Part shown: piece by piece, positions 4,826-63,209 of the stretch
How the letters are laid out: the number at the start of each line of letters is the position of its first letter
Position numbering within the stretch: the stretch's first letter is position 1
Assembly (NCBI GenBank): GCA_027452005.1
Contig: DAIDHF010000002.1
Coordinates: forward strand, 661-64,660
Source of the DNA: Acidimicrobiales bacterium
GTDB taxonomy: Bacteria; Actinomycetota; Acidimicrobiia; Acidimicrobiales; JAKAVM01
Length of the DNA: 64,000 nucleotides
Direction: 5' to 3'
Position numbers and translations under genes: made by a program
The notes under the pieces: model-generated
Databases searched by the model: none
The model's input: only the letters and a program-made list of their open reading frames with translations
Told to the model about the DNA's origin: nothing

Positions 4826-5272
4826 CTAAGCGCTCGAAGTTGCCTGTTGATCGGCGGCGACGACTAGGGCGGCGACGATCTCGGGGTAGACCCGTAGCAG
4901 TTTGCGTCGCACCAGGCTGCCAATGAGCGTCTTGTCCCAGGATGCGGCCCAGCAGATCGAGGTGCCACCGGTAGAAGTTGGCGTCAAGGTCACTTCCGCC
5001 CGGTAGTTCTTCACCGGGATGCCGCTCACCACCGTGTAGGCGATGCGTCGGAACTCGTCGATCTCCAAGATCTGCTCTACGCTCGTCGTGCGCCGACCGT
5101 AGCGGAACCACTGGATCGAGCCCTCGTGCGACGGGCCAGGAGAAGATGGCCGGTAGCCTCCGTCGTTCCACGGGCCCCACTGGGGAAAGGTGTTTGCGTT
5201 GGCCACGAGGGACCACACGACCTCGGGTGCGACTCGGGTCGTCCCCTCGGCTTGTACCATCAGCTGGCTCAT
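4826..5272 (-). CDS. SRPBCC family protein (second paralogue in the window)
   Basis: 148-aa ORF. MSQLMVQAEGTTRVAPEVVWSLVANANTFPQWGPW fits the SRPBCC N-terminus. The longer overlapping 209-aa ORF (4806-5435) is Arg-rich and is a shadow frame. Confidence 0.65.
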   Translation of the reverse strand: MSQLMVQAEGTTRVAPEVVWSLVANANTFPQWGPWNDGGYRPSSPGPSHEGSIQWFRYGRRTTSVEQILEIDEFRRIAYTVVSGIPVKNYRAEVTLTPTSTGGTSICWAASWDKTLIGSLVRRKLLRVYPEIVAALVVAADQQATSSA

Positions 5273-5374
5273 GTTGCATGCCTCCTCGATGTACTAGATG
5301 ATACGTGTATTCCATGGTACGGTCTGCTGTGGCCGACTCGCAATCCCGGGACCGCTTGAAAGACTGCGGAAGAT

Positions 5375-5430
5375 AGTGACGTCCTCTGATGGCTGAAGCC
5401 GCCAGTCCCCTCGGGGTAACTTGATGGGCA
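5375..5430. repeat. Dispersed repeat, copy A (hybrid of copies B and C)
   Basis: Sequence: AGTGACGTCCTCTGATGGCTGAAGCCGCCAGTCCCCTCGGGGTAACTTGATGGGC. The first 31 nt match 7417-7447 with one mismatch. Nt 12-54 match 7583-7625 at 37/43. Confidence 0.75.
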
Positions 5431-5485
5431 GACACTCGCCCACCCGGCGTTCCTCCTGGTACATCAGCGGGGAGTTGAAATACCT

Positions 5486-6577
5486 GTGATGCTCTTTTCT
5501 GAACGTTGGCAAAATTATTCTCATAGTGACTTGGATGATCTGCCTACTTATCCGAGGGTTGTAGAAATTCCAGAAGGCCTCCTATTCCTGGTCGAAAGCA
5601 GGAAGAAGCGGGTTGGACCGTGGTCAGAACGGGCAATAATCCTGAGCCACGATCCAAAATATCCTCAAAAGATTGGCACTCAGGTTTTGCCGAGCCGCGA
5701 TGGGATTACTCGTGTTGTGAGTACTTTACGATCACCAAGCCGTGTCCCCGTTCGAATTCGTGAGACCAGCTCCGCCTGCTATGCAGAGATATGGTCCTCA
5801 CAAGAGCTTGACTGGGTGTGCGCTGTCGAACTCAAACCTGGGTGTCGAGCAGCTTCGCTTCTTCCGTATGCTAACGACCGTGCCCTAGCGATAGGTGGAT
5901 TGGGGCATGCGCCAGCTGAGAACCCCTTCCCTAGCTCTGAGGTGGTTGATATCAACTTTTCCGACTGCACGACTACCGTGCTAACGCCATTCCCGCAACC
6001 AATCATCAGAGCACATGCTTTCTTGCTTCCTTCCCACCAAGTTTTCTTACTAGGTGGAATGTCGCATTATACCCGAGAAGAAATTCCTGAACAGCAACAA
6101 ACCTTTATTGCTTCCCCTCCTTTTGACCACTGGGATACCGCCGATGTCCCCGGCATCGGGCGTAATGGCCCAATAATTGCACAAGTGCATGACGGTGACA
6201 TACTCATCGCCGGCGGGGGAGATGGCGTACAAGAACAAGCCACCAATAGCTGCCGGTTGTATAGTGCCACCAAGAATACCTGGCAAGATCTAGCGCCGTC
6301 TTTAAACCCACGAACTTTCGCTGGCCATGTGGTCATTGGGAATTCGGTCGTAGTTGTCGGGGGTACTTCTCGGGGCTACGAATGGGTGCAGGATGCCATG
6401 TCGGTCGCAGAGGTCTATGACGGGGATAGTGATACGTGGTCGACTCTGCCGTCTCTGAACCGTGAGCGAATGTGCCCAACCGTCGCGTGGCTGGACAATG
6501 TAGGGGTCATCGTTGCGGGAGGAGTTGGAAGACAAGGAAGCGGCGTTACTAGTATCGAGATTTTGGCCGAGAGCTAG
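5486..6577 (+). CDS. Kelch-repeat (beta-propeller) protein
   Basis: 363-aa ORF with about 5-6 units of ~47 aa. Each unit carries a GG doublet (LAIGGLGH, VFLLGGMSH, ILIAGGGDG, VVVVGGTSRG, VIVAGGVG) and a Trp segment (NTWQDLAPSLNPRTFAGH, DTWSTLPSLNRERMCP). Confidence 0.7.
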   Translation: MMLFSERWQNYSHSDLDDLPTYPRVVEIPEGLLFLVESRKKRVGPWSERAIILSHDPKYPQKIGTQVLPSRDGITRVVSTLRSPSRVPVRIRETSSACYAEIWSSQELDWVCAVELKPGCRAASLLPYANDRALAIGGLGHAPAENPFPSSEVVDINFSDCTTTVLTPFPQPIIRAHAFLLPSHQVFLLGGMSHYTREEIPEQQQTFIASPPFDHWDTADVPGIGRNGPIIAQVHDGDILIAGGGDGVQEQATNSCRLYSATKNTWQDLAPSLNPRTFAGHVVIGNSVVVVGGTSRGYEWVQDAMSVAEVYDGDSDTWSTLPSLNRERMCPTVAWLDNVGVIVAGGVGRQGSGVTSIEILAES

Positions 6578-6580
6578 TTT

Positions 6581-6784
6581 GTGGATTTCCAACTTCGATC
6601 TAGGCAGATGACCTGCAATGAGGACGATGACCACCAGGGACCCTATCTACCAATTGATATTCCGAAGATAAGCTTTCGGGCAAAAACAATTGTGCACGCC
6701 TTCAAGATGAAGGTACCTCGAACCGGGTTGACATTGCTTCTTGGTCCGATCGGATGTGATCCTAAAGCAACCCTCCTGGCCTAG
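6581..6784 (+). pseudogene. Possible relic of an ABC-transporter ATPase N-terminus
   Basis: The tail of this 67-aa ORF reads ISFRAKTIVHAFKMKVPRTGLTLLLGPIGCDPKATLLA followed by a stop. It resembles the ABC N-terminus with a decayed Walker A (LLGPNGAGKSTLL). No remainder of the gene follows. Confidence 0.3.
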
Positions 6785-6801
6785 TCAGTGGGCCTCCGCG
6801 G

Positions 6802-7305
6802 CTACGCTGGCGTACGATCAAACACCGTGAATACCCACCCTGCCATCGCTCCAAATATCCAGTAACCCACAAAAAACACACTTAGATGCGCCAAGACTGC
6901 CGCGACCAATTGCGCAAGCCCAACACACAGATATATACGGCGCATTATCGACACCTTGTGAGCCGCAATCATGAATCGATTTGACAAGTACCACGGCCGA
7001 GTACTGTCGGAATTCCTCCGGATAGAATCAAACTTGATCAACAACCCATACCAGGTAGTAGTAAACAACACCGCTATGCCGGCCCAAAGCAAAAACATTG
7101 TGGAATTGTGGGACACAGTCCCGGCCCCAACTGCGCAACCTATCCCACCAACCGCCAACATCACCGTCATCGCCGTAGGCTCCACCCAACTAAGGCCCCA
7201 CCCAACTGGCGTAACAATTATTTTCCAAACTGCTCTGTCTAATCGCCCGAATGATACCTGAGACAAATTAGACAAATCCGATTTTACCCACGTCACTACA
7301 AACAC
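6802..7305 (-). CDS. Hypothetical integral membrane protein (about 4 TM helices)
   Basis: 167-aa ORF with four long hydrophobic stretches (for example AMTVMLAVGGIGCAVGAG, FLLWAGIAVLFTTTWYGLLI, IYLCVGLAQLVAAVLAHLSVFFVGYWIFGAMAGWVF). I recognise no family motif. Confidence 0.5.
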   Translation of the reverse strand: MFVVTWVKSDLSNLSQVSFGRLDRAVWKIIVTPVGWGLSWVEPTAMTVMLAVGGIGCAVGAGTVSHNSTMFLLWAGIAVLFTTTWYGLLIKFDSIRRNSDSTRPWYLSNRFMIAAHKVSIMRRIYLCVGLAQLVAAVLAHLSVFFVGYWIFGAMAGWVFTVFDRTPA

Positions 7306-7416
7306 CTCTCAATAATCAACAGACCCAGTATTTTAGTACAACGCTTCTCTTGATCACTTCTAATAGATTCCCTAAAGTGCCAGACCCCTACCATAAAGAT
7401 ATTTTGAGATTCCCTC

Positions 7417-7447
7417 AGTGACGTCCTCTGATGGCTGAAGCCACCAG
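7417..7447. repeat. Dispersed repeat, copy B (5' half)
   Basis: AGTGACGTCCTCTGATGGCTGAAGCCACCAG is 30/31 identical to the start of copy A. It then diverges into its own hairpin, CCAGC-TTCCT-GCTGG. Confidence 0.75.
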
Positions 7448-7582
7448 CTTCCTGCTGGCCTCTACCAGAGAGCTCTTCTCAGCCATTCCCCGAGAGGCGC
7501 TTGAAGGACCCGTCCAATCCCGTTGCGATCCACTATATACCTCGGGTGTGACACAGAGCGTCGAGGCTTGGTCCCGAGTCCC

Positions 7583-7625
7583 CTGACGGCTGAAGCCGCC
7601 AGTCCCCTCGGGGCGTTCTGATGGG
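7583..7625. repeat. Dispersed repeat, copy C (3' half)
   Basis: CTGACGGCTGAAGCCGCCAGTCCCCTCGGGGCGTTCTGATGGG is 37/43 identical to 5386-5428. Confidence 0.75.
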
Positions 7626-7696
7626 TGATGTCGCACCACAGCAGTTGGTGCCGTCCCGGGTACCTAAATCGGGATGCTAGTTGACGAGACCTATCC

Positions 7697-8490
7697 CGTT
7701 GCCTCATGTAAAATCCTCCGCCTAGGGTAATTCGTTGCCTCATGAAAAATCTCCGCCTAGATCGATGAGTTGAAGGTCCTATTTACTGGGACTTTTACTG
7801 GAGCCGGGGCTTTGGACAGGGCCATTCGTTCTAGTTGGGTCCTAAGACCTTGGATCTTGCGGTACAGATCTCCGGGCTGGATGGTATCCATGACCTTCTT
7901 CATGGTTTGGCGTTGCGCTTTAGTGATGTTGCCTTGAGCGAGGGGGTTGTCTCCGGTCGTGATCTTGTGAAGGTGATTTTGTGTTCCTTGCAGTAGTTGA
8001 ACAGGTGTGCGTTGATGAACTCAGAACCGTTGATCTCGACAAAACCTGGCTTGTTCTCGTTGCATTCAACCCAGGTCTTGATCGGGATCTGTGATTTGAG
8101 CAAGGTGCCAGTCTCTTGCCAGCAGAGGTACAGAGAGCGTCCAACACGTTGTAAGGCAAACAATCACCTGAGACCCGTATTTTGGAGTTCTGGGTTTCCG
8201 TGGCTTTAGAATCTTGAGCGTCCCAGCCCCTATCAGGGCCGCTCTTGCATGATCGCGATGCCAGCCAGTGAGATCGACCAGCTCATTGAGGATCCTGGTT
8301 TTTTCCGACCTGGTCGCACGGCTGTAGGCAACTGCCTTTTTCTGGGTTACAGCTTTTCTTTGACTCATTAATAGCTCCATGGATTCAGGCATAACCCACC
8401 CCGTCACCATCCGTCGATTCCGGCTCAAAGCGGAGATTCTCAGGTGAGGCAACGTATGGGATTACGCGGAGGTTTTTAATCAGTCAAGGT
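7697..8490 (-). mobile_element. Decayed insertion sequence, about 0.8 kb left, with recognisable subterminal repeats at both ends
   Basis: One end carries two direct ~28-bp repeats, CGTTGCCTCATG(T)AAAAT(C)CTCCGCCTAG, at 7697-7725 and 7733-7760 (36-bp period). The other end has the same motif in inverted orientation at 8430-8454 (GCGGAGATTCTCAGGTGAGGCAACG) and 8463-8483 (TACGCGGAGGTTTTTAATCAG). A broken transposase gene lies between them. Confidence 0.7.
7757..8368 (-). pseudogene. DDE (rve/integrase-core) transposase, internally deleted and frameshifted
   Basis: Pieces lie in at least four frames.
- N-terminus from ATG 8368: MSQRKAVTQKKAVAYSRATRSEKTRILNELVDLTGWHRDHARAAL...PRKPRTPKYG
- then ...LDALCTSAGKRLAP
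- then ...KPGFVEINGSEFINAHLFNYCKEHKITFTRSRP
- my translation of the tail: NITKAQRQTMKKVMDTIQPGDLYRKIQGLRTQLERMALSKAPAPVKVPVNRTFNSSI, with the stop at 7757-7759
The catalytic core between GFVEI and NGSEF is missing. Confidence 0.75.
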
Positions 8491-8497
8491 CTTGACA

Positions 8498-8542
8498 TTG
8501 ATTTAGTGCTTACTATAAACTTATAGCACTATCTAAATCAAT
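8498..8542. repeat. AT-rich imperfect palindrome between the IS end and the ATPase gene
   Basis: ATTGATTTAGTGCT-tactataaacttat-AGCACTatctAAATCAAT. The arms pair as 6 + 8 bp with a 4-nt bulge, and the centre has an ATAA/TTAT inner stem. It ends 72 bp upstream of the 8614 start. Confidence 0.5.
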
Positions 8543-8613: not shown

Positions 8614-9783
8614 ATGCCCCCATACCTTGCCGGAAGACATCAAGAGTATGAGGAGTTCGGCCGCCTTCTTAAGCAAACGACCATCTTGGAGAATATGGTC
8701 CTCACGGGTCTGCGTGGGGTCGGCAAGACGGTCCTTTTGGACACTCTAAAGCCCCGGGCAATGCAGCAAGGATGGCTCTGGGCTGGAACCGATATGTCCG
8801 AGTCAGCCATGGTGAGCGAGGAAACAATGGCCCTTCGTCTACTCGCGGACCTAACGGTAATTACGTCATCGCTGACGGTTGAGTATCCAGCACCCCAACG
8901 GGTCGGTTTCAGCGTCCCTCAAGAGCCCATTCAGGTCCGGTTGTCCTATGACGTTCTCGTCTCCATTTTCACTAGCACTCCTGGCCTCGTGGTTGACAAG
9001 CTCAAGGCGGTCCTTGAGTTCGCATGGCAGCACCTGCAAGCCCAGGAACGACGAAGAGTCATATTTGCCTATGACGAGGCACAGAATTTATCGGACAACG
9101 CTACAAAGGAACAGTTCCCGCTTTCCGTACTATTGGACGTCTTTCAGTCAATCCAGAAGAAGGGAATTCCTTTCATGCTCCTCCTCACTGGTTTGCCAAC
9201 CCTGTTCCCAAAGCTCGTAGAGGCCAGAACCTTTGCAGAGCGAATGTTCAGAGTCGTTACGATCGGACGATTGAGCGACGACGAAAGTAAGGAGGCTATA
9301 GCCGTACCGATTAAAAGAGATCGCTGTCCCGTCTCATTTAGCACGGAATCCGTGAACATAATCTGCCAGGAATCAGCGGGCTATCCATACTTCATTCAAT
9401 TCATTTGCCGCGAAGTCTTCGATGTATTCATTCAACAAGCGGGGACTGGCGAGCCAATGGGAGTCCCGATTGATGCAATCCAAAGGAAACTAGACGCTGA
9501 CTTCTTTGCCGGACGTTGGGCGAGAGTTCCAGACCGCCAGCGTGAGCTGTTATGGGTTATTTCTAATGTGGAACACGCTGAAGAAGAGTTCACCATCCAA
9601 GAGCTAGTAGCACGAGCGAAGGAACTACTCATCAAAGGCTTCTCGCCAAGCCACGCAAATCAGATGCTCGTTAGGCTTGCAGATCAGGGGCTCATTTATA
9701 AGAATAGGCTTGGAAAGTACTCGTTTGCGGTTCCGCTTCTGGGCAGCTTCATCCGTCGGAACTATTGTCCTCCCACTGAGTAA
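8614..9783 (+). CDS. Orphan AAA+ ATPase (archaeal-ATPase/ORC-like) with probable C-terminal winged helix
   Basis: 389-aa ORF. It has an N-terminal LAGRHQEYEEFGRLL, Walker A GLRGVGKT and Walker B VIFAYDEAQ. The C-terminal about 80 aa (FTIQELVARAKELLIKGFSPSHANQMLVRLADQGLIYKNRLGKYSF) look wHTH-like. Confidence 0.65.
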   Translation: MPPYLAGRHQEYEEFGRLLKQTTILENMVLTGLRGVGKTVLLDTLKPRAMQQGWLWAGTDMSESAMVSEETMALRLLADLTVITSSLTVEYPAPQRVGFSVPQEPIQVRLSYDVLVSIFTSTPGLVVDKLKAVLEFAWQHLQAQERRRVIFAYDEAQNLSDNATKEQFPLSVLLDVFQSIQKKGIPFMLLLTGLPTLFPKLVEARTFAERMFRVVTIGRLSDDESKEAIAVPIKRDRCPVSFSTESVNIICQESAGYPYFIQFICREVFDVFIQQAGTGEPMGVPIDAIQRKLDADFFAGRWARVPDRQRELLWVISNVEHAEEEFTIQELVARAKELLIKGFSPSHANQMLVRLADQGLIYKNRLGKYSFAVPLLGSFIRRNYCPPTE

Positions 9784-28800: not shown

Positions 28801-30510
28801 TTAGGTTGCCGACCCATAAAAGCCTGCGTCGCCGTAGTTGAAGACCCCTCCGTCAGCTGCGATCTCCCAGTAGCCCTGGCCGTCGGGAGTGGCTGCCATT
28901 CCAACAGCAGGCGCTCCAAGATTCAGTCCCGTGCCCGAACCAAAGAACCCCGCATCGCCGTAGTTGAAGACCCCTCCATCAGCTGCAACCTCCCAGTAGC
29001 CCTGGCCGTCGGGGGTGGCTGCCATGGAGACTATTGGAGCATTGAGGGGCTTGTCCCCCATTGAACCGTAGAAGGTTGCATTGCCAAAGCTAAAGATCCC
29101 TCCATCGGCTGCTACTTCCCAGTAACCCTGGCCGTCGGGAGTGGCTGCCATGGAAACTATTGGAGCATTGAGGGGCTCATTGGATGCGCTTCCAAGAGAC
29201 GCTGCACTCCCAAAATCAAAAATACCCCCGTTGGATGATGCCAGCCAGTACCCAGATCCTCCCGAAGATGGGGCCATTGCGACGAATTTCTTATCTGTCA
29301 TTATCAGCGGGAGCACTAGTGTGGATGTAGAGGTAGGGGACACTTGTAGATTTGTGTATCCAACAGCCACGCAATAGATTCCCTGAGGACAAGAAATGCC
29401 AAGAGTATAGTAACCAATTCCGTGCTGAAGTATGCCAGCGTCTGTAATTATTCCTAAATTGTTTCCAATCGGTTCTTGGGGATTGGGGATTTGTGACCAT
29501 TGTGAACCATTATACGATTCAATTACAGAATTGTATTGAGGTCCAGGCGGAGGGGAACTAGTAACACCGATCGCCTCGCAGTACGTTATTGTTGAGCAAT
29601 CGAGTCCTAGAACCTGCACGTCTGACCCATTGTTAGAAAGATTGGAAATTGTTGACCAAGAAACTCCATCGTACTTTTCAGAAAAGAATGTCGAGTCAAG
29701 ATAACTTACTCCCGCGTCACCGACTCCGATGCAATACGTTGGACTTATACATGATACATTGGTTAGAGATGCCCAAGCTTCTCCCTGGGGAATATCCGGT
29801 GATACTATAGTCTTCCAGGTTGTGCCATCGTAAACTGATGCAACCTGTCTATTCTGCATGTTGGAATAACCCACATCATCAATTGCCATGCAATATTCTG
29901 CTGATGCGCAAGATACGTCACTAACACTAGGGATACTGCTAAGGGTCATTTCTGACCAGGACGTTCCGCTGTAGATTGCTACGGTGCCACTGCTTCCTCC
30001 GGCCCCGATACAGAAGCTCGAAGACGTACATGAAACTTCAGTCAATTCAGGAATCACTTTACCGTTTGCGGTAGACACCACTGCCCAAGTCGATCCATTG
30101 AAGGATTCTGAAAAAAGAGTTGACTCTGATCCATGGGCCCCAACCGCCATACAAAAGTCTATCGAAGAACAAGAAATTCCAAACAGGGTGGCATCTTGGG
30201 ACTCTATGCCGGAAAGCGTATCTGACCATTGTGAACCGTTATATTCTTCAATTAGCGGTGAAACGGTTTGACTATTTTGAATTTCTCCACCTCCAACGGC
30301 AACACAGAACACGATCGTAGGACATGAAACACTAGCCAGAGTACCCGTCGGGTCAAAAGGAGAAGGCGTAAATTGCCAACTGCCATCAGCAAAGGCCGGA
30401 CTTACTAATTGAAGCGATCCCAAAATAGTAAGAGCCATGGCGGATAGAACTAATGCACGTACTCGGACGAACAATTCCAAGCAAGAGTGCTCATCCTTAG
30501 AACTCAACAT
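28801..30510 (-). CDS. Secreted protein built from two different beta-propeller-type repeat families
   Basis: 569-aa ORF with a signal peptide (LVLSAMALTILGSLQLVSPAFA). Seven units of about 45 aa follow, each with SC-x5-C-x-A/G-V/I-G plus a Trp (SCPTIVFCVAVGG, SCSSIDFCMAVGA, SCTSSSFCIGAGG, SCASAEYCMAID, SCISPTYCIGVGD, DCSTITYCEAIG, SCPQGIYCVAVGY). Four units of about 41 aa then read TPDGQGYWEVAADGG(I/V)F.(F/Y)G.A.F(Y/F)GS. Confidence 0.75.
   Translation of the reverse strand: MLSSKDEHSCLELFVRVRALVLSAMALTILGSLQLVSPAFADGSWQFTPSPFDPTGTLASVSCPTIVFCVAVGGGEIQNSQTVSPLIEEYNGSQWSDTLSGIESQDATLFGISCSSIDFCMAVGAHGSESTLFSESFNGSTWAVVSTANGKVIPELTEVSCTSSSFCIGAGGSSGTVAIYSGTSWSEMTLSSIPSVSDVSCASAEYCMAIDDVGYSNMQNRQVASVYDGTTWKTIVSPDIPQGEAWASLTNVSCISPTYCIGVGDAGVSYLDSTFFSEKYDGVSWSTISNLSNNGSDVQVLGLDCSTITYCEAIGVTSSPPPGPQYNSVIESYNGSQWSQIPNPQEPIGNNLGIITDAGILQHGIGYYTLGISCPQGIYCVAVGYTNLQVSPTSTSTLVLPLIMTDKKFVAMAPSSGGSGYWLASSNGGIFDFGSAASLGSASNEPLNAPIVSMAATPDGQGYWEVAADGGIFSFGNATFYGSMGDKPLNAPIVSMAATPDGQGYWEVAADGGVFNYGDAGFFGSGTGLNLGAPAVGMAATPDGQGYWEIAADGGVFNYGDAGFYGSAT
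28804..29292. repeat. Tandem ~123-126-bp coding repeats (4 units) in the 3' part of the secreted-protein gene
   Basis: Long near-identical DNA blocks are present. For example, CTATTGGAGCATTGAGGGG occurs at 29031 and 29157 (126-bp period), and CCAGTAGCCCTGGCCGTCGGG occurs at 28868 and 28994. Confidence 0.85.
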
Positions 30511-30526
30511 GTTGAATAACTTTCAT

Positions 30527-30673
30527 TCAAACATCACCTACAGCTGACCCGTAAAACACCGCATCTCCATTGAGGGGCTTGTCCCCCATTGAACCGTAGA
30601 AGGTTGCATTGCCAAAGCTAAAGACCCCTCCATCGGCTGCGACCTCCCAATAGCCACCATTGTCAGCTGTCAC
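30527..30673 (-). pseudogene. Orphan 3' relic of a paralogous repeat protein (one GYW..DGG unit plus C-terminus)
   Basis: My translation gives VTADNGGYWEVAADGGVFSFGNATFYGSMGDKPLNGDAVFYGSAVGDV followed by a stop. DNA 30569-30656 matches 29041-29128 at about 82/88, with the first 55 nt identical. There is no gene body upstream; the relic abuts the stop of the 30670-31398 gene. Confidence 0.8.
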
Positions 30674-37399: not shown

Positions 37400-38305
37400 G
37401 TGGTCAGTCGGCTTTCTCGGATTTTAGATTCTGTAGAAATTTATCCAAGTACCCGGGTGGCAATTGGTGTAATTAGCCCGGCTGGACTTGAACTGGCCGG
37501 AGATACCACAGAGACTTTTTCTTGGGCCTCGGTAACTAAGCTTGTAACCTCACTTGCCATACTATTAGCCCTTGAAGAGGCGACACTATCCCTAGACGAC
37601 CTGACCGGTCCATATAAGTCAAGCATTCGAAATCTCTTGAGCCATTCCTCAGGAATTGGTCCAAGACCATTTGCCGGGCTGGATCGTAATATTGGATTAC
37701 CTCAGCGCAGCCTCTCAGGACGATATGTTGAGGGTAAAGATCTAGAGGAGCTCCAGTGCCCGCCTGAGACTAAGCGAATCTACTCAAATCTGGGATTTGA
37801 GATTCTCGCTGGCCACCTTGAGGCTCGCTCACAGATGAGCTTTGCTGAGTATCTAATCGAGGGCGTCCTAGAGCCTTTGTCCATGATGAACTTGGCCCGT
37901 CCGGATAACTTTGGGTCCCCAGCTCACGGTGCCCGGGGGACGATTGGCGACCTCATGGTCATGGCAAGAGAACTCCTCAACCCAGAGCTACTATCGCCTG
38001 AAACCACTCTGGTCGCACGGACGGCATGCCACCCGGGGCTATCTGGGATTCTTCCGGGGTTTGGCCACATGGACGACAACAGTTGGGGGCTGGGATTTGA
38101 GATAAAGTCGACTAAGGAGCCTCACTGGACCTCCCCGGCCAACACTCTAGAGACCTTTGGTCATTTTGGTCAGTCTGGTGCCTTTGTCTGGATTGACCCG
38201 GTCAACCGGGTCGCATTCGGTTACCTCTCAGAGAGACCCTTCGATTCATGGGCCAGAGACAACTGGCACAAGATTTCCAGTGACGTATTGACCCACTTTG
38301 GTTAG
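37400..38305 (+). CDS. Serine hydrolase, beta-lactamase-family (short form)
   Basis: 301-aa ORF with the SxxK motif WASVTKLVTS and later YSNLGFEIL. Confidence 0.7.
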   Translation: MVSRLSRILDSVEIYPSTRVAIGVISPAGLELAGDTTETFSWASVTKLVTSLAILLALEEATLSLDDLTGPYKSSIRNLLSHSSGIGPRPFAGLDRNIGLPQRSLSGRYVEGKDLEELQCPPETKRIYSNLGFEILAGHLEARSQMSFAEYLIEGVLEPLSMMNLARPDNFGSPAHGARGTIGDLMVMARELLNPELLSPETTLVARTACHPGLSGILPGFGHMDDNSWGLGFEIKSTKEPHWTSPANTLETFGHFGQSGAFVWIDPVNRVAFGYLSERPFDSWARDNWHKISSDVLTHFG

Positions 38306-57990: not shown

Positions 57991-60990
57991 TTGCTTTCAA
58001 AGATTCTAAAGAATAAAAAGGCCCTCATAGCGGGCGTGGTGGTTGTGGCCGTGATTGGTGCCATCGTTTACTCGATTTCCGGTTCCAAGTCGAACTCGAT
58101 TAACGGACAGACCGTCATCTATTCACAGGTGGCTCGACGCACTCTACAGGGAACCACGGTTCTCTCAGGCACCCTGGGGCACAAGACAATTACGACCGTT
58201 TCGGCCATGAATTCCGCTTTTGTGAGTTCTACCGATGCCACGGCCAACTCTGTCCAAAACCAGGGGGACACCCTATTTTCTCTGAATGGCCGCAAGGCAA
58301 TTGCCGAAAACGGGACTCTTCCGTTCTTTCGGTCTTTAGGGCCTGGTGACGTGGGAAACGATGTACTTGAGCTCAAACAGATCTTGGCTTCATCGGGAGA
58401 CAACCCCGGTGCCATGAACAACATCTTCACTCAGCAAACCCAAAGTGCCCTAGCACAGTGGCAAGCCCAAAATGGATATCCCAGCGGAGTGCCAGCCTCA
58501 AAAGAGGCTGTCACAGTGGCCCTGCAACAAGGGACCGGCTATAACCTAGGGGCCCAGTCTAGTGCCGGGCTTGTAATCGGGCCCCCTGCCCCAACGGCCC
58601 AACTTTCCTCGTACTCTGTTTCTCACTTTATCCCGGCCCGTTCTCGCCATCTAATTGGGAAGAGATACCGCTTTAGTGGCAAGAAACTGGGTCATCACCA
58701 CAATCGATCCAAAGCTACCCGCCGACACAAAAAGCGAGACCGACACCTAAACAAGTCAGGACTCAAAAGGAACGGTTCTCGCCAGGCAGTTTTGGCATCG
58801 TTTTCCACCGAGAGTCATCTTTCGGGTCCAGTCCCGCACACCACGACTCTGGGCCTCACCATTACAGGGACCACGTCAACGACTCCAGGTACCTCGGTCA
58901 CCTTTACTGTAAACGCGAACGAGGCCGCTCCCCAAAACACGTACGTCTACCTCACGGTTGGGGGCAGCGCTCTCGCCGGGGTGGACTACGTCCCATTCAA
59001 CACGACCCTGGAACTCGACTCAGGTGCCATCTCTACCAGCTTTACCGTCACCACGCTACCAAATCAGACTATCGAGCCGAATAAGTTCTTGGACATCGTC
59101 TTGTCTCAGTCACCTAGTGGGGACTACTACGTTTCGGAGCCTTCGGCCGCTGCACTAACTATCGATGAGCCGACCGGGACTCTTGGGCTACCCACACTTA
59201 CCCTTACGTCATCGACCACATATCTAGATAAAGGGGCTCCGTTCGAGGTCGTGATCGGCCTAGATCAAGCCTACGGACAGTCGGTAACCGTTCAACTCGC
59301 CTATAGTGGGACTGCGGTTGCGGGAACCGACTACGTGGAACCCTCAGGAAACATTGTCGTTCCGGCCGGGTACACGTCATTGACAGTGCCAATCGCAACC
59401 GTGTCGAATAATCTTGTTGAACCAGATAAGACGTTGACCGTAACTCTCGCGACCAACTCGGCGTACGACATTGGAAATCCTGACAGTGCAACCGTGACAA
59501 TTCACGACCCCAACGTTCCTCAGCTCAACATTATTGGCGGGTCACAGATTACCGCTGGGACCTCAACCACTCTAACCATTCAAGCAAACCAGACGGCCAG
59601 TCAGGATACCCAGGTGCTCCTGTCATTCTCTGGGACCGCTCAGGCCGGTATTGATTACGATGTCCCTGACCCCGTAGTGACTATTCCAGCAGGCCAGCAG
59701 AGCGTGTCGTTCTCACTTACCACCCTCGTCAACCCGATTATAGAGCCCCAGCGCTATATAGTTGTCTCAATCGCACAGTCGCCAGCGGGAGCTTATACAG
59801 TCCAGACCCCGGGATCTACGGTGGTAACTTTGGGTACTCCTCAGTCAGCTCCCCCTTTTGTCACGATTAGTTCCGGGATCAACTACCTCCACAAAGGAAC
59901 CCCTTTCCAGGTCTCAGTCGGGCTTACTCAGGCCACTGATACCACCTTGACCATCAACTTGTCCTTTAGTGGCACGGCCAAGGCGGGAGTAGACTACACG
60001 CCACCGGCCGGACTAATTCAGATTCCAGCAGGCCAAACAGTTGCCCAGGTTACAATCCCAACCCTGGTGGACAACCTGGTTGAAGCCGACACGACACTCA
60101 CAGTGTCCATTGCTCCGAGTACGTCCTACCAGATTGGAAACCCGAACTCGGTTACTACAACGATCACCTCAAACGTGGTCCCGACAATCACGATAAGTTC
60201 CAGTACGTCGTCGTTGTCTGAGGGAGCAGACGCGACCTTTACAATTACAGCTAACCAGGCCCCGGTCAAAGATACCTCGATCAATTTTTCCGTGGCTGGC
60301 ACAGTTCAGGCGGGAGTTGACTACGTCCCTTTGGCTGGCACGGTTATCCTTCCAGCGGGCCAGACCCAAGTCACCGTGTCATTTCAATCCATTGAAAAGG
60401 ACATCGTTTTTGAGCCTACCGACATGATAGTAGGATCGTGGCCGATAAGAATTGGGCAGGTCTACGTGAAACAAGGCCAGACTATCTCGGCGGGCAGCCC
60501 AATTATGGACCTCACCGAGAGCCAGAACACAATAACCCTTCAAGCCTCACCGTCTGACTTTACCAAGTTGGCCCTGGGACAGAGCTGTACGTTTACAATT
60601 GCCGGGAGCCAGACTGAATATAACGGGACCATATCAGAGCTTGATTCAAACCCAACTATCCAGTCTGGATCTGGGTCCTCAAGCTCACAGCAGATATTTG
60701 AAGGTCGGATTGCGGTTACGAATCTTCCAAAGAGTGACCGGAATGCCGATGGGGCCTCGGTGTCTATTACCGTGGTAACCCAGGAGGCAGACAACGTGCT
60801 GGCAGTCCCGATCGCCGCTATCAAACAGAACGGGACCGGGGTTGACGAGGTTAGGGTTATCGACATGTCGGCCAAGCAAAAGGTCAAGACGGTCCCGGTA
60901 ACAACGGGTCTCACGGAAGGTTCCTATGTTCAAATAACCGGGGGACTAAAACTTGGGGAAACCGTTATAGTATCGGTAAGTCAAGGATAA
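57991..60990 (+). CDS. Giant membrane-fusion (HlyD-type) adaptor: TM, PG-binding-like segment, basic linker, 5 Calx-beta-like modules, HlyD beta-barrel
   Basis: 999-aa ORF.
- TM helix: ALIAGVVVVAVIGAIVYSI
- PG_binding-like segment: VLELKQILASSGDNPGAMNNIFTQQTQSALAQWQAQNGYPSG
- five modules of about 105 aa with G(T/S)A.AG.DY..P.G....PAG ... EP/EA
- C-terminal region: VYVKQGQTISAGSPIMDL...LAVPIAAIKQNG...YVQITGGLKLGETVIV. Confidence 0.8.
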   Translation: MLSKILKNKKALIAGVVVVAVIGAIVYSISGSKSNSINGQTVIYSQVARRTLQGTTVLSGTLGHKTITTVSAMNSAFVSSTDATANSVQNQGDTLFSLNGRKAIAENGTLPFFRSLGPGDVGNDVLELKQILASSGDNPGAMNNIFTQQTQSALAQWQAQNGYPSGVPASKEAVTVALQQGTGYNLGAQSSAGLVIGPPAPTAQLSSYSVSHFIPARSRHLIGKRYRFSGKKLGHHHNRSKATRRHKKRDRHLNKSGLKRNGSRQAVLASFSTESHLSGPVPHTTTLGLTITGTTSTTPGTSVTFTVNANEAAPQNTYVYLTVGGSALAGVDYVPFNTTLELDSGAISTSFTVTTLPNQTIEPNKFLDIVLSQSPSGDYYVSEPSAAALTIDEPTGTLGLPTLTLTSSTTYLDKGAPFEVVIGLDQAYGQSVTVQLAYSGTAVAGTDYVEPSGNIVVPAGYTSLTVPIATVSNNLVEPDKTLTVTLATNSAYDIGNPDSATVTIHDPNVPQLNIIGGSQITAGTSTTLTIQANQTASQDTQVLLSFSGTAQAGIDYDVPDPVVTIPAGQQSVSFSLTTLVNPIIEPQRYIVVSIAQSPAGAYTVQTPGSTVVTLGTPQSAPPFVTISSGINYLHKGTPFQVSVGLTQATDTTLTINLSFSGTAKAGVDYTPPAGLIQIPAGQTVAQVTIPTLVDNLVEADTTLTVSIAPSTSYQIGNPNSVTTTITSNVVPTITISSSTSSLSEGADATFTITANQAPVKDTSINFSVAGTVQAGVDYVPLAGTVILPAGQTQVTVSFQSIEKDIVFEPTDMIVGSWPIRIGQVYVKQGQTISAGSPIMDLTESQNTITLQASPSDFTKLALGQSCTFTIAGSQTEYNGTISELDSNPTIQSGSGSSSSQQIFEGRIAVTNLPKSDRNADGASVSITVVTQEADNVLAVPIAAIKQNGTGVDEVRVIDMSAKQKVKTVPVTTGLTEGSYVQITGGLKLGETVIVSVSQG
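58849..60420 (+). repeat. Array of five Calx-beta-like coding repeats (A-B-A-B-A subtypes)
   Basis: Core motifs by module:
- R1: GGSALAGVDYVPF
- R2: SGTAVAGTDYVEP
- R3: SGTAQAGIDYDVP
- R4: SGTAKAGVDYTPP
- R5: AGTVQAGVDYVPL
The repeats are divergent at the DNA level, so this is an old duplication and not a slippage-prone array. Confidence 0.75.
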
Positions 60991-62992: not shown

Positions 62993-63033
62993 ATGACGAC
63001 CCGTGCTGGCTCAAGCCACCAGTCCCCTTGGGT
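62993..63033. repeat. Dispersed repeat, diverged copy D (in the mgtE leader)
   Basis: ATGACGACCCGTGCTGGCTCAAGCCACCAGTCCCCTTGGG is roughly three quarters identical to copy A over about 44 nt, including an exact CCAGTCCCCT. Confidence 0.55.
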
Positions 63034-63209
63034 TGCACTCATGAATCCAGAGTTACCAGAAGTCCTGTATATTGAGATCGCTTGCAAGTAACCAGAAGGA
63101 GAGATCTTGCCTCAAGTGATTATTTGAGATAGGGTTGCGAAATTGAGTGCTGGGCCGGTAGTGCATTTAGTATTCACCGATTCGTAAACTTTTTGAAAGC
63201 TTAGTTCAT

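Follow-up and report, generated by a model that had tools for sequence, protein, structure and literature searches.

Closest described systems

IS608 of Helicobacter pylori, the model member of the IS200/IS605 family of insertion sequences (ISs), carries tnpA and tnpB on its top strand, bears subterminal imperfect palindromes at both ends on that one strand, and leaves its target unduplicated. Its left cut site, TTAC, is external and precedes the left hairpin by 19 nt on the 5' side; its right cut site, TCAA, is internal, 10 nt 3' of the right hairpin. The corresponding guides are AAAG and GAAT (PMC3201880, PMC5934647). These 4-nt guides sit at the 5' foot of each hairpin, with positions 1, 2 and 4 pairing with the cut site. 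The lineage described here shares this entire plan, the spacing being 18-19 nt on the left and 9-10 nt on the right across the two systems. However, its motifs are CCAT and TCAC, with guides GGGA and GAAG, and it resides in GC-rich actinobacteria, has an unrelated hairpin sequence and is known from sequence alone.

In the part of the work on ISGst1-5 of Geobacillus stearothermophilus that is drawn on here, tnpB-only, tnpA-bearing and gene-less (PATE-like) elements have similar ends, a conserved transposon-adjacent motif is accompanied by a related terminal motif, and the guide RNA derives from the 3' end of tnpB together with the right end (Meers et al., PMC10055086). The same three forms and the same kind of motif pair are present in the lineage described here, albeit with CCAT in place of the TTTAT/TTCAT of ISGst; activity is experimental for ISGst, whereas here we infer it. 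That part of the work makes no mention of single-hairpin scars such as copies A and D below (PMC10055086). The PATEs and MITEs derived from IS200/IS605 elements resemble our mini-element in being about 200 nt long, in containing both IS ends and no ORF, and in occupying various sites in several genomes, but the present mini-elements have kept a portion of the tnpB 3' end, or guide-RNA scaffold. REP/RAYT systems likewise have imperfect hairpins that stand singly, are preceded by a short conserved sequence on the 5' side, and share their ancestry with the ends of IS200/IS605 elements; the family described here differs in its lack of inverted doublets, its low copy number, its degraded hairpins, and a TnpA encoded within ordinary IS elements.

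Repeat copies in the window

The window, that is, the whole 64,000-nt stretch of DNA that was analysed, contains four copies of CTGAYGGCTGAAGCCRCCAG, all on the plus strand.

5386-5405, plus strand: core of copy A, no mismatches
7428-7447, plus strand: core of copy B, no mismatches
7583-7602, plus strand: core of copy C, no mismatches
63003-63022, plus strand: core of copy D, three mismatches

The motif scan returned no match in 100 shuffles, repeat finding in the window recovered the same four-copy family, and no fifth copy was detected at E < 0.4 (nhmmer --max, profile built from all four copies, 64-kb window). The original prediction had treated these copies as an unclassified dispersed repeat, and its measurements were reproduced: A matches B in 30 of 31 positions (5375-5405 against 7417-7447) and C in 37 of 43 (5386-5428 against 7583-7625), the cores of B and C are 155 nt apart, all four copies lie between credible genes, and hand translation confirms that the peptide RGLAASAIRG is the minus-strand reading of the repeat. 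The label 'unclassified' did not survive. The repeat is very probably the subterminal hairpin of a 'peel-and-paste' transposon, an IS200/IS605-family element (IS605-type, with tnpA and tnpB), and the window copies its relics, making them fragments of one known IS end. One of the options offered at the outset, a REP/MITE-like repeat, was therefore essentially right in that the copies are non-autonomous derivatives of such an IS, but the strand assumed was the wrong one: the functional (active top) strand is the minus strand of the window.

Protein-domain and tblastn searches detected neither tnpA nor tnpB in the 64-kb window, and without tnpA there the copies are non-autonomous. A weak tblastn match to TnpA at 38150-38281 was discarded, as it falls in the C-terminus of a 301-aa ORF (37400-38305) that appears by eye to be serine hydrolase-like. 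No homology was found among the flanks of A, B/C and D. The only relative found is a 2.3-kb strain contig, 99.25% identical, that carries the same insertions, so no empty site is available for the window copies; no public contigs with exact matches to four window proteins were found.

Full-length elements in relatives

A scan of a genome collection located the core in 89 public contigs, often near contig ends. The contigs are mostly MAGs of Acidimicrobiales and other Actinomycetota, groups in which the lineage is common. In these relatives the 20-mer forms the subterminal hairpin at both ends of elements of 1.3-1.7 kb, in the same orientation and with no terminal inverted repeats. Covariation across 25 distinct variants supports the stem. 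The element flanks split into two classes with a common hairpin: a right-end class, composed of a variable flank, GTGAC, the core and CTTCTTTTCA, followed by a reverse-complemented gene end, and a left-end class, in which the core and TCCCCTCGGGGCGATCTG are followed by ATGG and a variable flank.

The full-length layout is a left hairpin, an ORF of about 400 aa, a stop codon, 7 nt, the right hairpin and AGAAGTCAC. The 7-nt gap recurs in seven relatives (L003, L036, L001, L024, L051, L078 and L081), and copy B is arranged like their right ends. The ORF of L003 is TnpB (OrfB_IS605), with matches to PF01385 (1.7e-23), PF07282 (1.7e-17) and PF12323 (2.7e-10). The 1.7-kb relatives add a Y1 TnpA between the left end and tnpB (PF01797, 2e-34 to 3e-39 in L001, L051 and L030), and 26 loci match when the TnpA of relatives is used as a tblastn query. 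The flanks of full-length L003 and of the 425-nt L047 are identical to the left and to the right, pointing to an internal deletion at a single site.

Boundaries, target and guides

The boundaries of the element, with target CCAT and right terminus GTCAC, are fixed by the points at which alignments diverge and by an empty site in relatives. This occupied/empty pair represents one site in Mycobacterium relatives rather than the sites of the window copies. In the occupied contig L046 the element lies exactly between a sequence ending in CACGATAGTTCTC and one beginning with ATGGCACGC, and the two are contiguous in the empty L101, L102 and L103, giving a precise junction with no target duplication and with CCAT retained. 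By our own count, 39 of the 48 distinct left ends listed have CCAT at a distance of 18 nt on the 5' side of the left hairpin foot, and GAAG and GTCAC are near-invariant across the right ends. At the level of sequence, both CCAT/GGGA and TCAC/GAAG obey the pairing rule 1:2, 2:1, 4:4, deduced from TTAC/AAAG and TCAA/GAAT of IS608. The distal segments formerly thought to close the repeat (5462-5467 and 7650-7655) lie outside these boundaries, and by our estimate chance alone would supply about 0.3 6-mer complements of this kind in the 80 nt around a 20-nt core.

The mini-element at 7418-7620

7418-7620, minus strand: gene-less mini-element (PATE/MITE-like) of the IS605 family, 203 nt, ends matching the family consensus
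7621-7624, minus strand: target, or transposon-adjacent, motif CCAT (ATGG on the plus strand), adjoining the left end and outside the element
7603-7606, minus strand: left guide GGGA (TCCC on the plus strand), 4 nt, adjoining the C hairpin
7583-7602, minus strand: left-end subterminal imperfect palindrome (C core), CTGGCGGC-TTCA-GCCGTCAG
7448-7582, minus strand: interior, derived from the region of the tnpB 3' end or guide-RNA (omega RNA) scaffold, with the conserved motif GGGATTGGACGGGTCC
7448-7451, minus strand: right guide GAAG of the B hairpin
7428-7447, minus strand: right-end subterminal imperfect palindrome (B core), CTGGTGGC-TTCA-GCCATCAG
7418-7427, minus strand: 10-nt right tail AGGACGTCAC, with the terminal motif (G)TCAC at its end

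Copy C is the left end and copy B the right end of what looks like one intact 203-nt mini-element without a gene. Its order on the minus strand is left end (C), interior of about 135 nt and right end (B), and it retains the two ends together with their guides and cut-site motifs, with no Pfam-supported ORF within 7418-7620. Related mini-elements are present in L023 (88% over 198 nt), L011, L060, L070 and L084, and in the two that were checked, L023 and L011, the flanks differ from those in the window.

The interior motif GGGATTGGACGGGTCC corresponds to GGGCCGGACTGGCCC of full-length elements. An alignment of 29 right-end regions, full-length and mini, has invariant columns at this motif, and RNAalifold predicts two hairpins common to these regions, the mini-element included. 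In the TnpB elements studied so far, the stretch comprising the tnpB 3' end and the right end yields the TnpB guide (omega) RNA. The conservation and the two predicted hairpins point to a possible guide-RNA role for the mini-element interior. By analogy with characterized elements, the mini-element could be mobile only if TnpA were to come from elsewhere.

Single-hairpin relics

5376-5423, minus strand: copy A, single-hairpin relic of 48 nt, its left part as in B (30/31) and its right part of left-end type
5376-5385, minus strand: tail of A of right-end type, GTGACGTCCT
5386-5405, minus strand: chimeric hairpin of A, with the left arm of B and the right arm of C
5406-5423, minus strand: left-end tail of A, 18 nt, followed by the target motif ATGG at 5424-5427
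62993-63040, minus strand: copy D, an older, decayed single-hairpin relic with tail ATGACGACCC (nhmmer E = 3.9e-14)

Copy A is a recombination product of two half-repeats, one like B and one like C, as had been proposed: its hairpin arms are chimeric, and it combines a tail of right-end type with one of left-end type. The linker of A (minus strand CAAGTTACCCCGAG) is identical to that in the left end of L023, not to that of C. The nucleotide difference that was read as a structure-preserving change from U.G to U-A is instead a product of the chimera; on the functional minus strand it leaves a C.A mismatch, and A folds poorly, no better than shuffles (z = +0.68). The chimeric arms indicate a deletion between two direct-repeat hairpins rather than a compensatory change. 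The same hybrid architecture is present in L020, L021, L049/L090, L055 and L083.

Copy D is 69% identical to A. Two pairs are broken in its hairpin (63003-63022), which folds as poorly as shuffles do, but the guide GGGA, the 18-nt spacing and an 18-nt left-end tail are kept; the flanking ATGA at 63041-63044 corresponds to TCAT, not CCAT. Both copies are 'solo hairpin' scars, analogous to solo LTRs, that originated by recombination or slippage between the 20-nt direct-repeat hairpins, deleting all between them. Since A and D have a left-type guide only and mismatched hairpins, they are probably immobile.

Alternative explanations

Copies A and B/C bracket a Kelch gene and a membrane-protein gene, and the pair could be a mobile cassette, moved by site-specific recombination or as a composite IS605-type unit running from 7620 to 5376. 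The minus-strand order would permit the latter, with left end C, right end B, the genes, and then A with its GTCAC terminus; TnpA might in theory switch to another terminus further downstream, as reported for ISGst (PMC10055086). The Kelch protein is, moreover, almost an orphan, with two database matches. However, no second instance of the gene pair was found, with or without such flanks, the sole other copy being the 99.25% identical strain with the same layout. GC content is unchanged at the repeat boundaries, at about 50-52% and running on to 10 kb, which also disposes of an island bounded by the repeats, and the only guide of A, GGGA, mismatches TCAC at the fourth position. As another decayed transposon adjoins at 7690-8480, co-located debris is the simpler reading, and we consider a mobile cassette very improbable.

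In a REP/RAYT system, repetitive extragenic palindromes would be propagated and preserved by a domesticated TnpA-like enzyme encoded by a single gene, and would have roles in the host. REPs are believed to stem from the ends of IS200/IS605 elements, and A and D, as single hairpins with a conserved 5' tail, are loosely REP-like. However, the TnpA genes of relatives lie inside bounded tnpB elements, between left and right ends and without flanking REPs, and the 64-kb window holds just four copies, which all point the same way and form no inverted doublets. The solo forms carry degraded hairpins and are scarce: six distinct ones were recognized among the classified ends from the 89 genome contigs, and a metagenome scan for the hybrid form returned one locus, identical to L049. 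There is hardly any room left for this explanation.

The hairpins could also belong to a structured RNA family in its own right, either a small RNA or a cis-regulatory one, transcribed from the plus strand and folding as the hairpin plus CCCCUCGGGG. The copies are intergenic, the plus-strand version lies just upstream of start codons in relatives, and the hairpin pairs covary: among 25 distinct variants, gathered by fuzzy matching to the consensus, 92% of cells are paired and five of eight pairs have changed on both sides, a score reached by none of 500 shuffles. A double change from C-G to T-A at the B hairpin likewise preserves the pair. This covariation is explained equally by binding of single-stranded DNA by TnpA and by a guide-RNA stem, and the minus strand pairs better than the plus strand (G.T against A.C, -12.8 against -10.1 kcal/mol). 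As single-stranded DNA, the C hairpin folds at -12.8 kcal/mol (z = -2.1) with the outer stem CCCGAG/CTCGGG, whereas A and D are no better than shuffles. Conservation, moreover, ends exactly at the transposon boundaries. Rfam 15 gave no gathering-score match in the window or in four related loci, and nothing at the repeat copies (5200-7800) up to E 5. An independent RNA is thus scarcely credible; what stands of the earlier small-RNA option is limited to the right-end copy, which in full-length relatives lies at the 3' end of tnpB.

Three further candidates were rejected: a hammerhead or other ribozyme suggested by CUGAUG...GAA, as the element order does not fit and Rfam gives no match; a replication-strand bias, the GC skew being too weak to infer the direction of replication; and matches of the repeat to viral contigs, which reduce to a chance match inside one phage gene.

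Proposed mechanism

The mechanism of the IS200/IS605-family element can be drawn by analogy with IS608, ISDra2 and ISGst, and the same analogy underlies what is said here of biochemistry, RNA expression and the present mobility of the mini-element. A Y1 (HUH) TnpA would bind the hairpins of both ends in single-stranded form. It would cut after the CCAT that precedes the left hairpin by 18 nt on its 5' side and after the TCAC that lies 9-10 nt beyond the right hairpin on its 3' side, these sites being read by base pairing with the 4-nt guides at the hairpin 5' foot, GGGA on the left and GAAG on the right. The element would travel as a single-stranded circle and insert 3' of CCAT, leaving the target unduplicated. 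The right end, together with the 3' end of tnpB, would be transcribed as the TnpB omega RNA, with the DNA flanking the right end providing its guide portion.

Placement at start codons

In relatives, left ends are frequently found directly against host start codons. The target CCAT is complementary to ATGG, and a left end therefore lands exactly on an ATG start codon; the left end has a GGGG run at -11 to -8, and its terminal TG and the host ATG together make up a conserved UGAUG in which stop and start overlap. One such site is hemY|chdC in a Mycobacterium MAG (L046), where the element lies between tightly spaced genes of an essential operon. A tentative and rather doubtful reading of these sequences is that the left end may act as a portable translation-initiation region, letting the element persist between tightly spaced genes of essential operons; much of the pattern could equally reflect which insertions at CCAT sites have survived. 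In the window, none of the three features adjoins a gene start. A sigma-70 promoter scan of the left end of one element found no sites, and such a scan is uninformative for actinobacteria. A 'bridge ORF', an antisense ORF that spans the element and ends at a UGA overlapping the host AUG, is present in L003, L036, L024 and L001, but it is confounded by GC-rich shadow ORFs and fails as a general feature in L046, L037, L026 and L059.

Implications

Three intergenic features of the window can be annotated as IS605-family relics, which also accounts for three spurious ORFs on the minus strand. The copies are ordinary mobile-DNA debris, with no new RNA or recombination site to claim. For this actinobacterial IS605/TnpB lineage, the ends, the target CCAT, the terminal TCAC and the guide tetranucleotides are defined, and a decay series is documented from full element to tnpB-only element, mini-element and solo hairpin. 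The motif CCAT is unlike the T-rich motifs of IS608 (TTAC) and, in the part of the ISGst work drawn on here, of ISGst (TTTAT/TTCAT), and could be of interest for the mining of TnpB nucleases.

The repeat family in the window

The repeat consists of a 20-nt core, CTGAYGGCTGAAGCCRCCAG, which occurs without mismatches at positions 5386, 7428 and 7583 and with three mismatches at 63003. All four core copies lie on the + strand, and the core was absent from 100 shuffles. A repeat search of the window with find_repeats recovered the identical four-copy family, and no fifth copy was detected in the window by an nhmmer --max profile search. The similarities given in the original prediction, with identities of 30/31 between copies A and B and 37/43 between copies A and C, and a distance of 155 nt between the B and C cores, hold when read directly from the sequence. 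An Rfam search of the window identified RNase P RNA and a single tRNA, both away from the repeats, and gave no match at the repeat sites. There is no shift in GC content at the repeats, and the sequences flanking A, B/C and D are not homologous to one another.

Features of the repeat in the window (cores on the + strand; transposon top strand, minus strand of the window)
5376–5423: copy A, a single-hairpin relic (solo), with a right-end tail on one side of the hairpin and a left-end tail on the other
7418–7620: gene-less mini-element, 203 nt, with a guide and a hairpin at each end, the GTCAC terminus and an adjoining intact target motif (7621–7624)
7428–7447: core of copy B, right end
7583–7602: core of copy C, left end
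62993–63040: copy D, an older, decayed solo

Relatives encoding TnpB and a Y1 transposase

A search that represented each species by a single genome found the core in 89 contigs, most of them from metagenome-assembled genomes (MAGs) of Acidimicrobiales and other Actinomycetota, with matches frequently less than about 250 nt from a contig end, as expected of a multi-copy element. The oriented flanks sort into two classes. Class 1, which is copy B-like, reads variable DNA, GTGACTTCT, core, CTTCTTTTCA and a conserved sequence that is the reverse complement of a gene 3′ end (...NILRAGL...); class 2, which is copy C-like, reads conserved sequence, core, TCCCCTCGGGGCGATCTG, ATGG and variable DNA. 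On the opposite strand, full-length relatives comprise the left hairpin, one or two ORFs, a stop codon, 7 nt, the right hairpin and AGAAGTCAC. The long ORF is TnpB (PF01385, 1.7e-23; PF07282, 1.7e-17; PF12323, 2.7e-10), and the 1.7-kb relatives possess an extra ORF of 134–140 aa between the left hairpin and tnpB, identified as a Y1 transposase by PF01797 (2e-34 to 3e-39). A tblastn search with this transposase matched 26 loci, frequently truncated at a contig end beside a class-2 end. Judged by this gene content, the family comprises IS605-type elements (tnpA and tnpB), 1.3-kb tnpB-only elements and shorter derivatives.

At one site beside an LCM-family methyltransferase gene, two loci with both flanks identical (L003 and L047) carry a 1361-nt tnpB element in one MAG and a 425-nt derivative in the other, which suggests internal deletion at a single site. 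Separately, one archaeal MAG (L002, L008, L074 and L076) has the same 20-mer 10–12 nt from four contig ends, where the conserved sequence on either side is different (CGCAATTCAT-core-AATTCTTGCTCCAAACGTTTAAA); here the hairpin may be shared by a multi-copy element unrelated to this family.

Element ends, target and boundaries

The end consensus was drawn from 48 left and 52 right ends, all distinct. The left end comprises CCAT, an 18-nt spacer closing with GGGA, and then the hairpin; the right end comprises GAAG, the hairpin, and 9–10 nt closing with GTCAC. Outside CCAT and GTCAC, the DNA is unrelated from copy to copy. The predicted hairpin is supported by covariation: across 25 distinct variants, 92% of cells are paired, five of the eight pairs change on both sides, and the covariation score is reached by none of 500 shuffles. 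In one Mycobacterium MAG, locus L046 carries a 1.37-kb element with ...GGCACGATAGTTCTC on one side and ATGGCACGCCTGGAC on the other; these two sequences are contiguous in three relatives whose adjacent protein is 95–98% identical. This direct comparison of occupied and empty sites fixes the element boundaries and reveals no target duplication.

The end geometry is the same as that of IS608, where TTAC, external to the element, precedes the left hairpin by 19 nt, TCAA follows the right hairpin by 10 nt, and the two hairpins have the guides AAAG and GAAT at their 5′ feet (PMC3201880, PMC5934647). The pairing rule deduced from IS608 matches positions 1, 2 and 4 of the cut site to positions 2, 1 and 4 of the guide; CCAT/GGGA and TCAC/GAAG both satisfy this rule at the sequence level. 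The architecture agrees with that of IS608/ISDra2-type elements, and every defining feature tested in sequence was found. The family structure is also that of Geobacillus ISGst, for which tnpA-bearing, tnpB-only and PATE-like members with common ends have been described (PMC10055086).

The mini-element and the solo relics

Copies B and C are the two ends of the mini-element, and neither tnpA nor tnpB is present in the window. Homologous mini-elements occur at L023 (88% over 198 nt), L011, L060, L070 and L084, with unrelated flanks where these were compared (L023 and L011). The interior retains GGG..GGAC.GG.CC, which overlaps the last tnpB codons in full-length elements, and RNAalifold of 29 right-end regions predicts a shared structure of this hairpin and the terminal hairpin. 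By analogy with ISGst (PMC10055086), the two-hairpin stretch would be the scaffold end of a TnpB guide RNA.

Copy A has chimeric hairpin arms. Read on the minus strand, the left one (CTGGCGGC) is typical of left ends and the right one (GCCATCAG) of right ends, leaving a C.A mismatch and a fold no better than that of shuffles. The left-end linker of copy A is identical to that of L023 and differs from that of copy C; copy A is therefore the remnant of a separate mini-element insertion, the interior of which was lost when the two direct-repeat hairpins recombined or slipped. Solos of this architecture are also present at L020, L021, L049/L090, L055 and L083. The G/A difference between copies, proposed as a compensatory change, is instead a recombination footprint, and the distal segments proposed to close the fold lie outside the element as chance 6-mers.

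Left ends at host start codons

With CCAT as target, the complementary strand reads ATGG, directed away from the left end. At 24 of 44 distinct left ends, an ORF 100 or more codons long starts with this ATG (3/44 and 12/44 in the other two frames), and these ORFs have high third-position GC. Left ends of relatives that abut host ATG start codons include those at L046, L003, L012, L014, L020, L021, L024, L029, L036, L042, L068–L070 and L087. All ten ORFs tested match real Pfam families, with the profile mostly starting 6–28 residues from the ATG. The gene that begins at the L046 left end is chdC (hemQ), for a coproheme decarboxylase that at 231 aa is the same length as most listed homologues, and comparison with the empty-site relatives (L101–L103) places the element in the 5-nt gap between the stop codon of an upstream hemY-type gene and chdC. 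A GGGG run at −11 to −8 comes from the left end, which also makes up UGAUG together with the start codon of the host. This placement may reflect an evolved portable leader or only survivorship among CCAT sites; in the window, no copy abuts a gene start.

Neighbourhood of the repeats

The Kelch and membrane-protein pair between copies A and B/C shows no sign of being the cassette originally envisaged, its sole other instance being a 99.25% identical strain contig (L100) of the same layout. The Kelch-repeat protein (5489–6577) is almost an orphan, with one database cluster besides itself at E ≤ 1e-10 (24% identity). Within 5424–5491, the target-motif ATG of copy A opens a 21-codon ORF, the TGA of which (5487–5489) overlaps the Kelch ATG (5489) as TGATG; this overlap is kept in L100 and may be coincidence.

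Elsewhere in the window, 126-nt tandem repeats with a distant copy 94% identical (28811–29177 and 30568–30655) and five repeats of period ~330 nt (58945–60324) are likely repeated domains within large ORFs. A near-perfect palindrome at 8497–8542 (22-nt arms, 2-nt spacer, 77% complementary), ~70 nt upstream of an AAA-ATPase/STAND-like gene (8614–9783), looks operator-like in sequence.

To the right of the mini-element and beside it, ~7690–8480 is probably a second, decayed insertion sequence. Inverted repeats of ~60 nt (7697–7760 and 8425–8478), each with two copies of a ~30-nt motif, CGTTGCCTCATGWAAAATCYTCCGCCTAG, bracket ~700 bp containing a 100-aa ORF (8066–8368, minus strand). This ORF region has no Pfam or NCBIfam match; the ORF shows 55% identity to the N terminus of plasmid-borne DDE-type transposases from Mycobacterium, Rhodococcus and Arthrobacter. 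The simplest reading is of an intergenic region gathering mobile-element debris.
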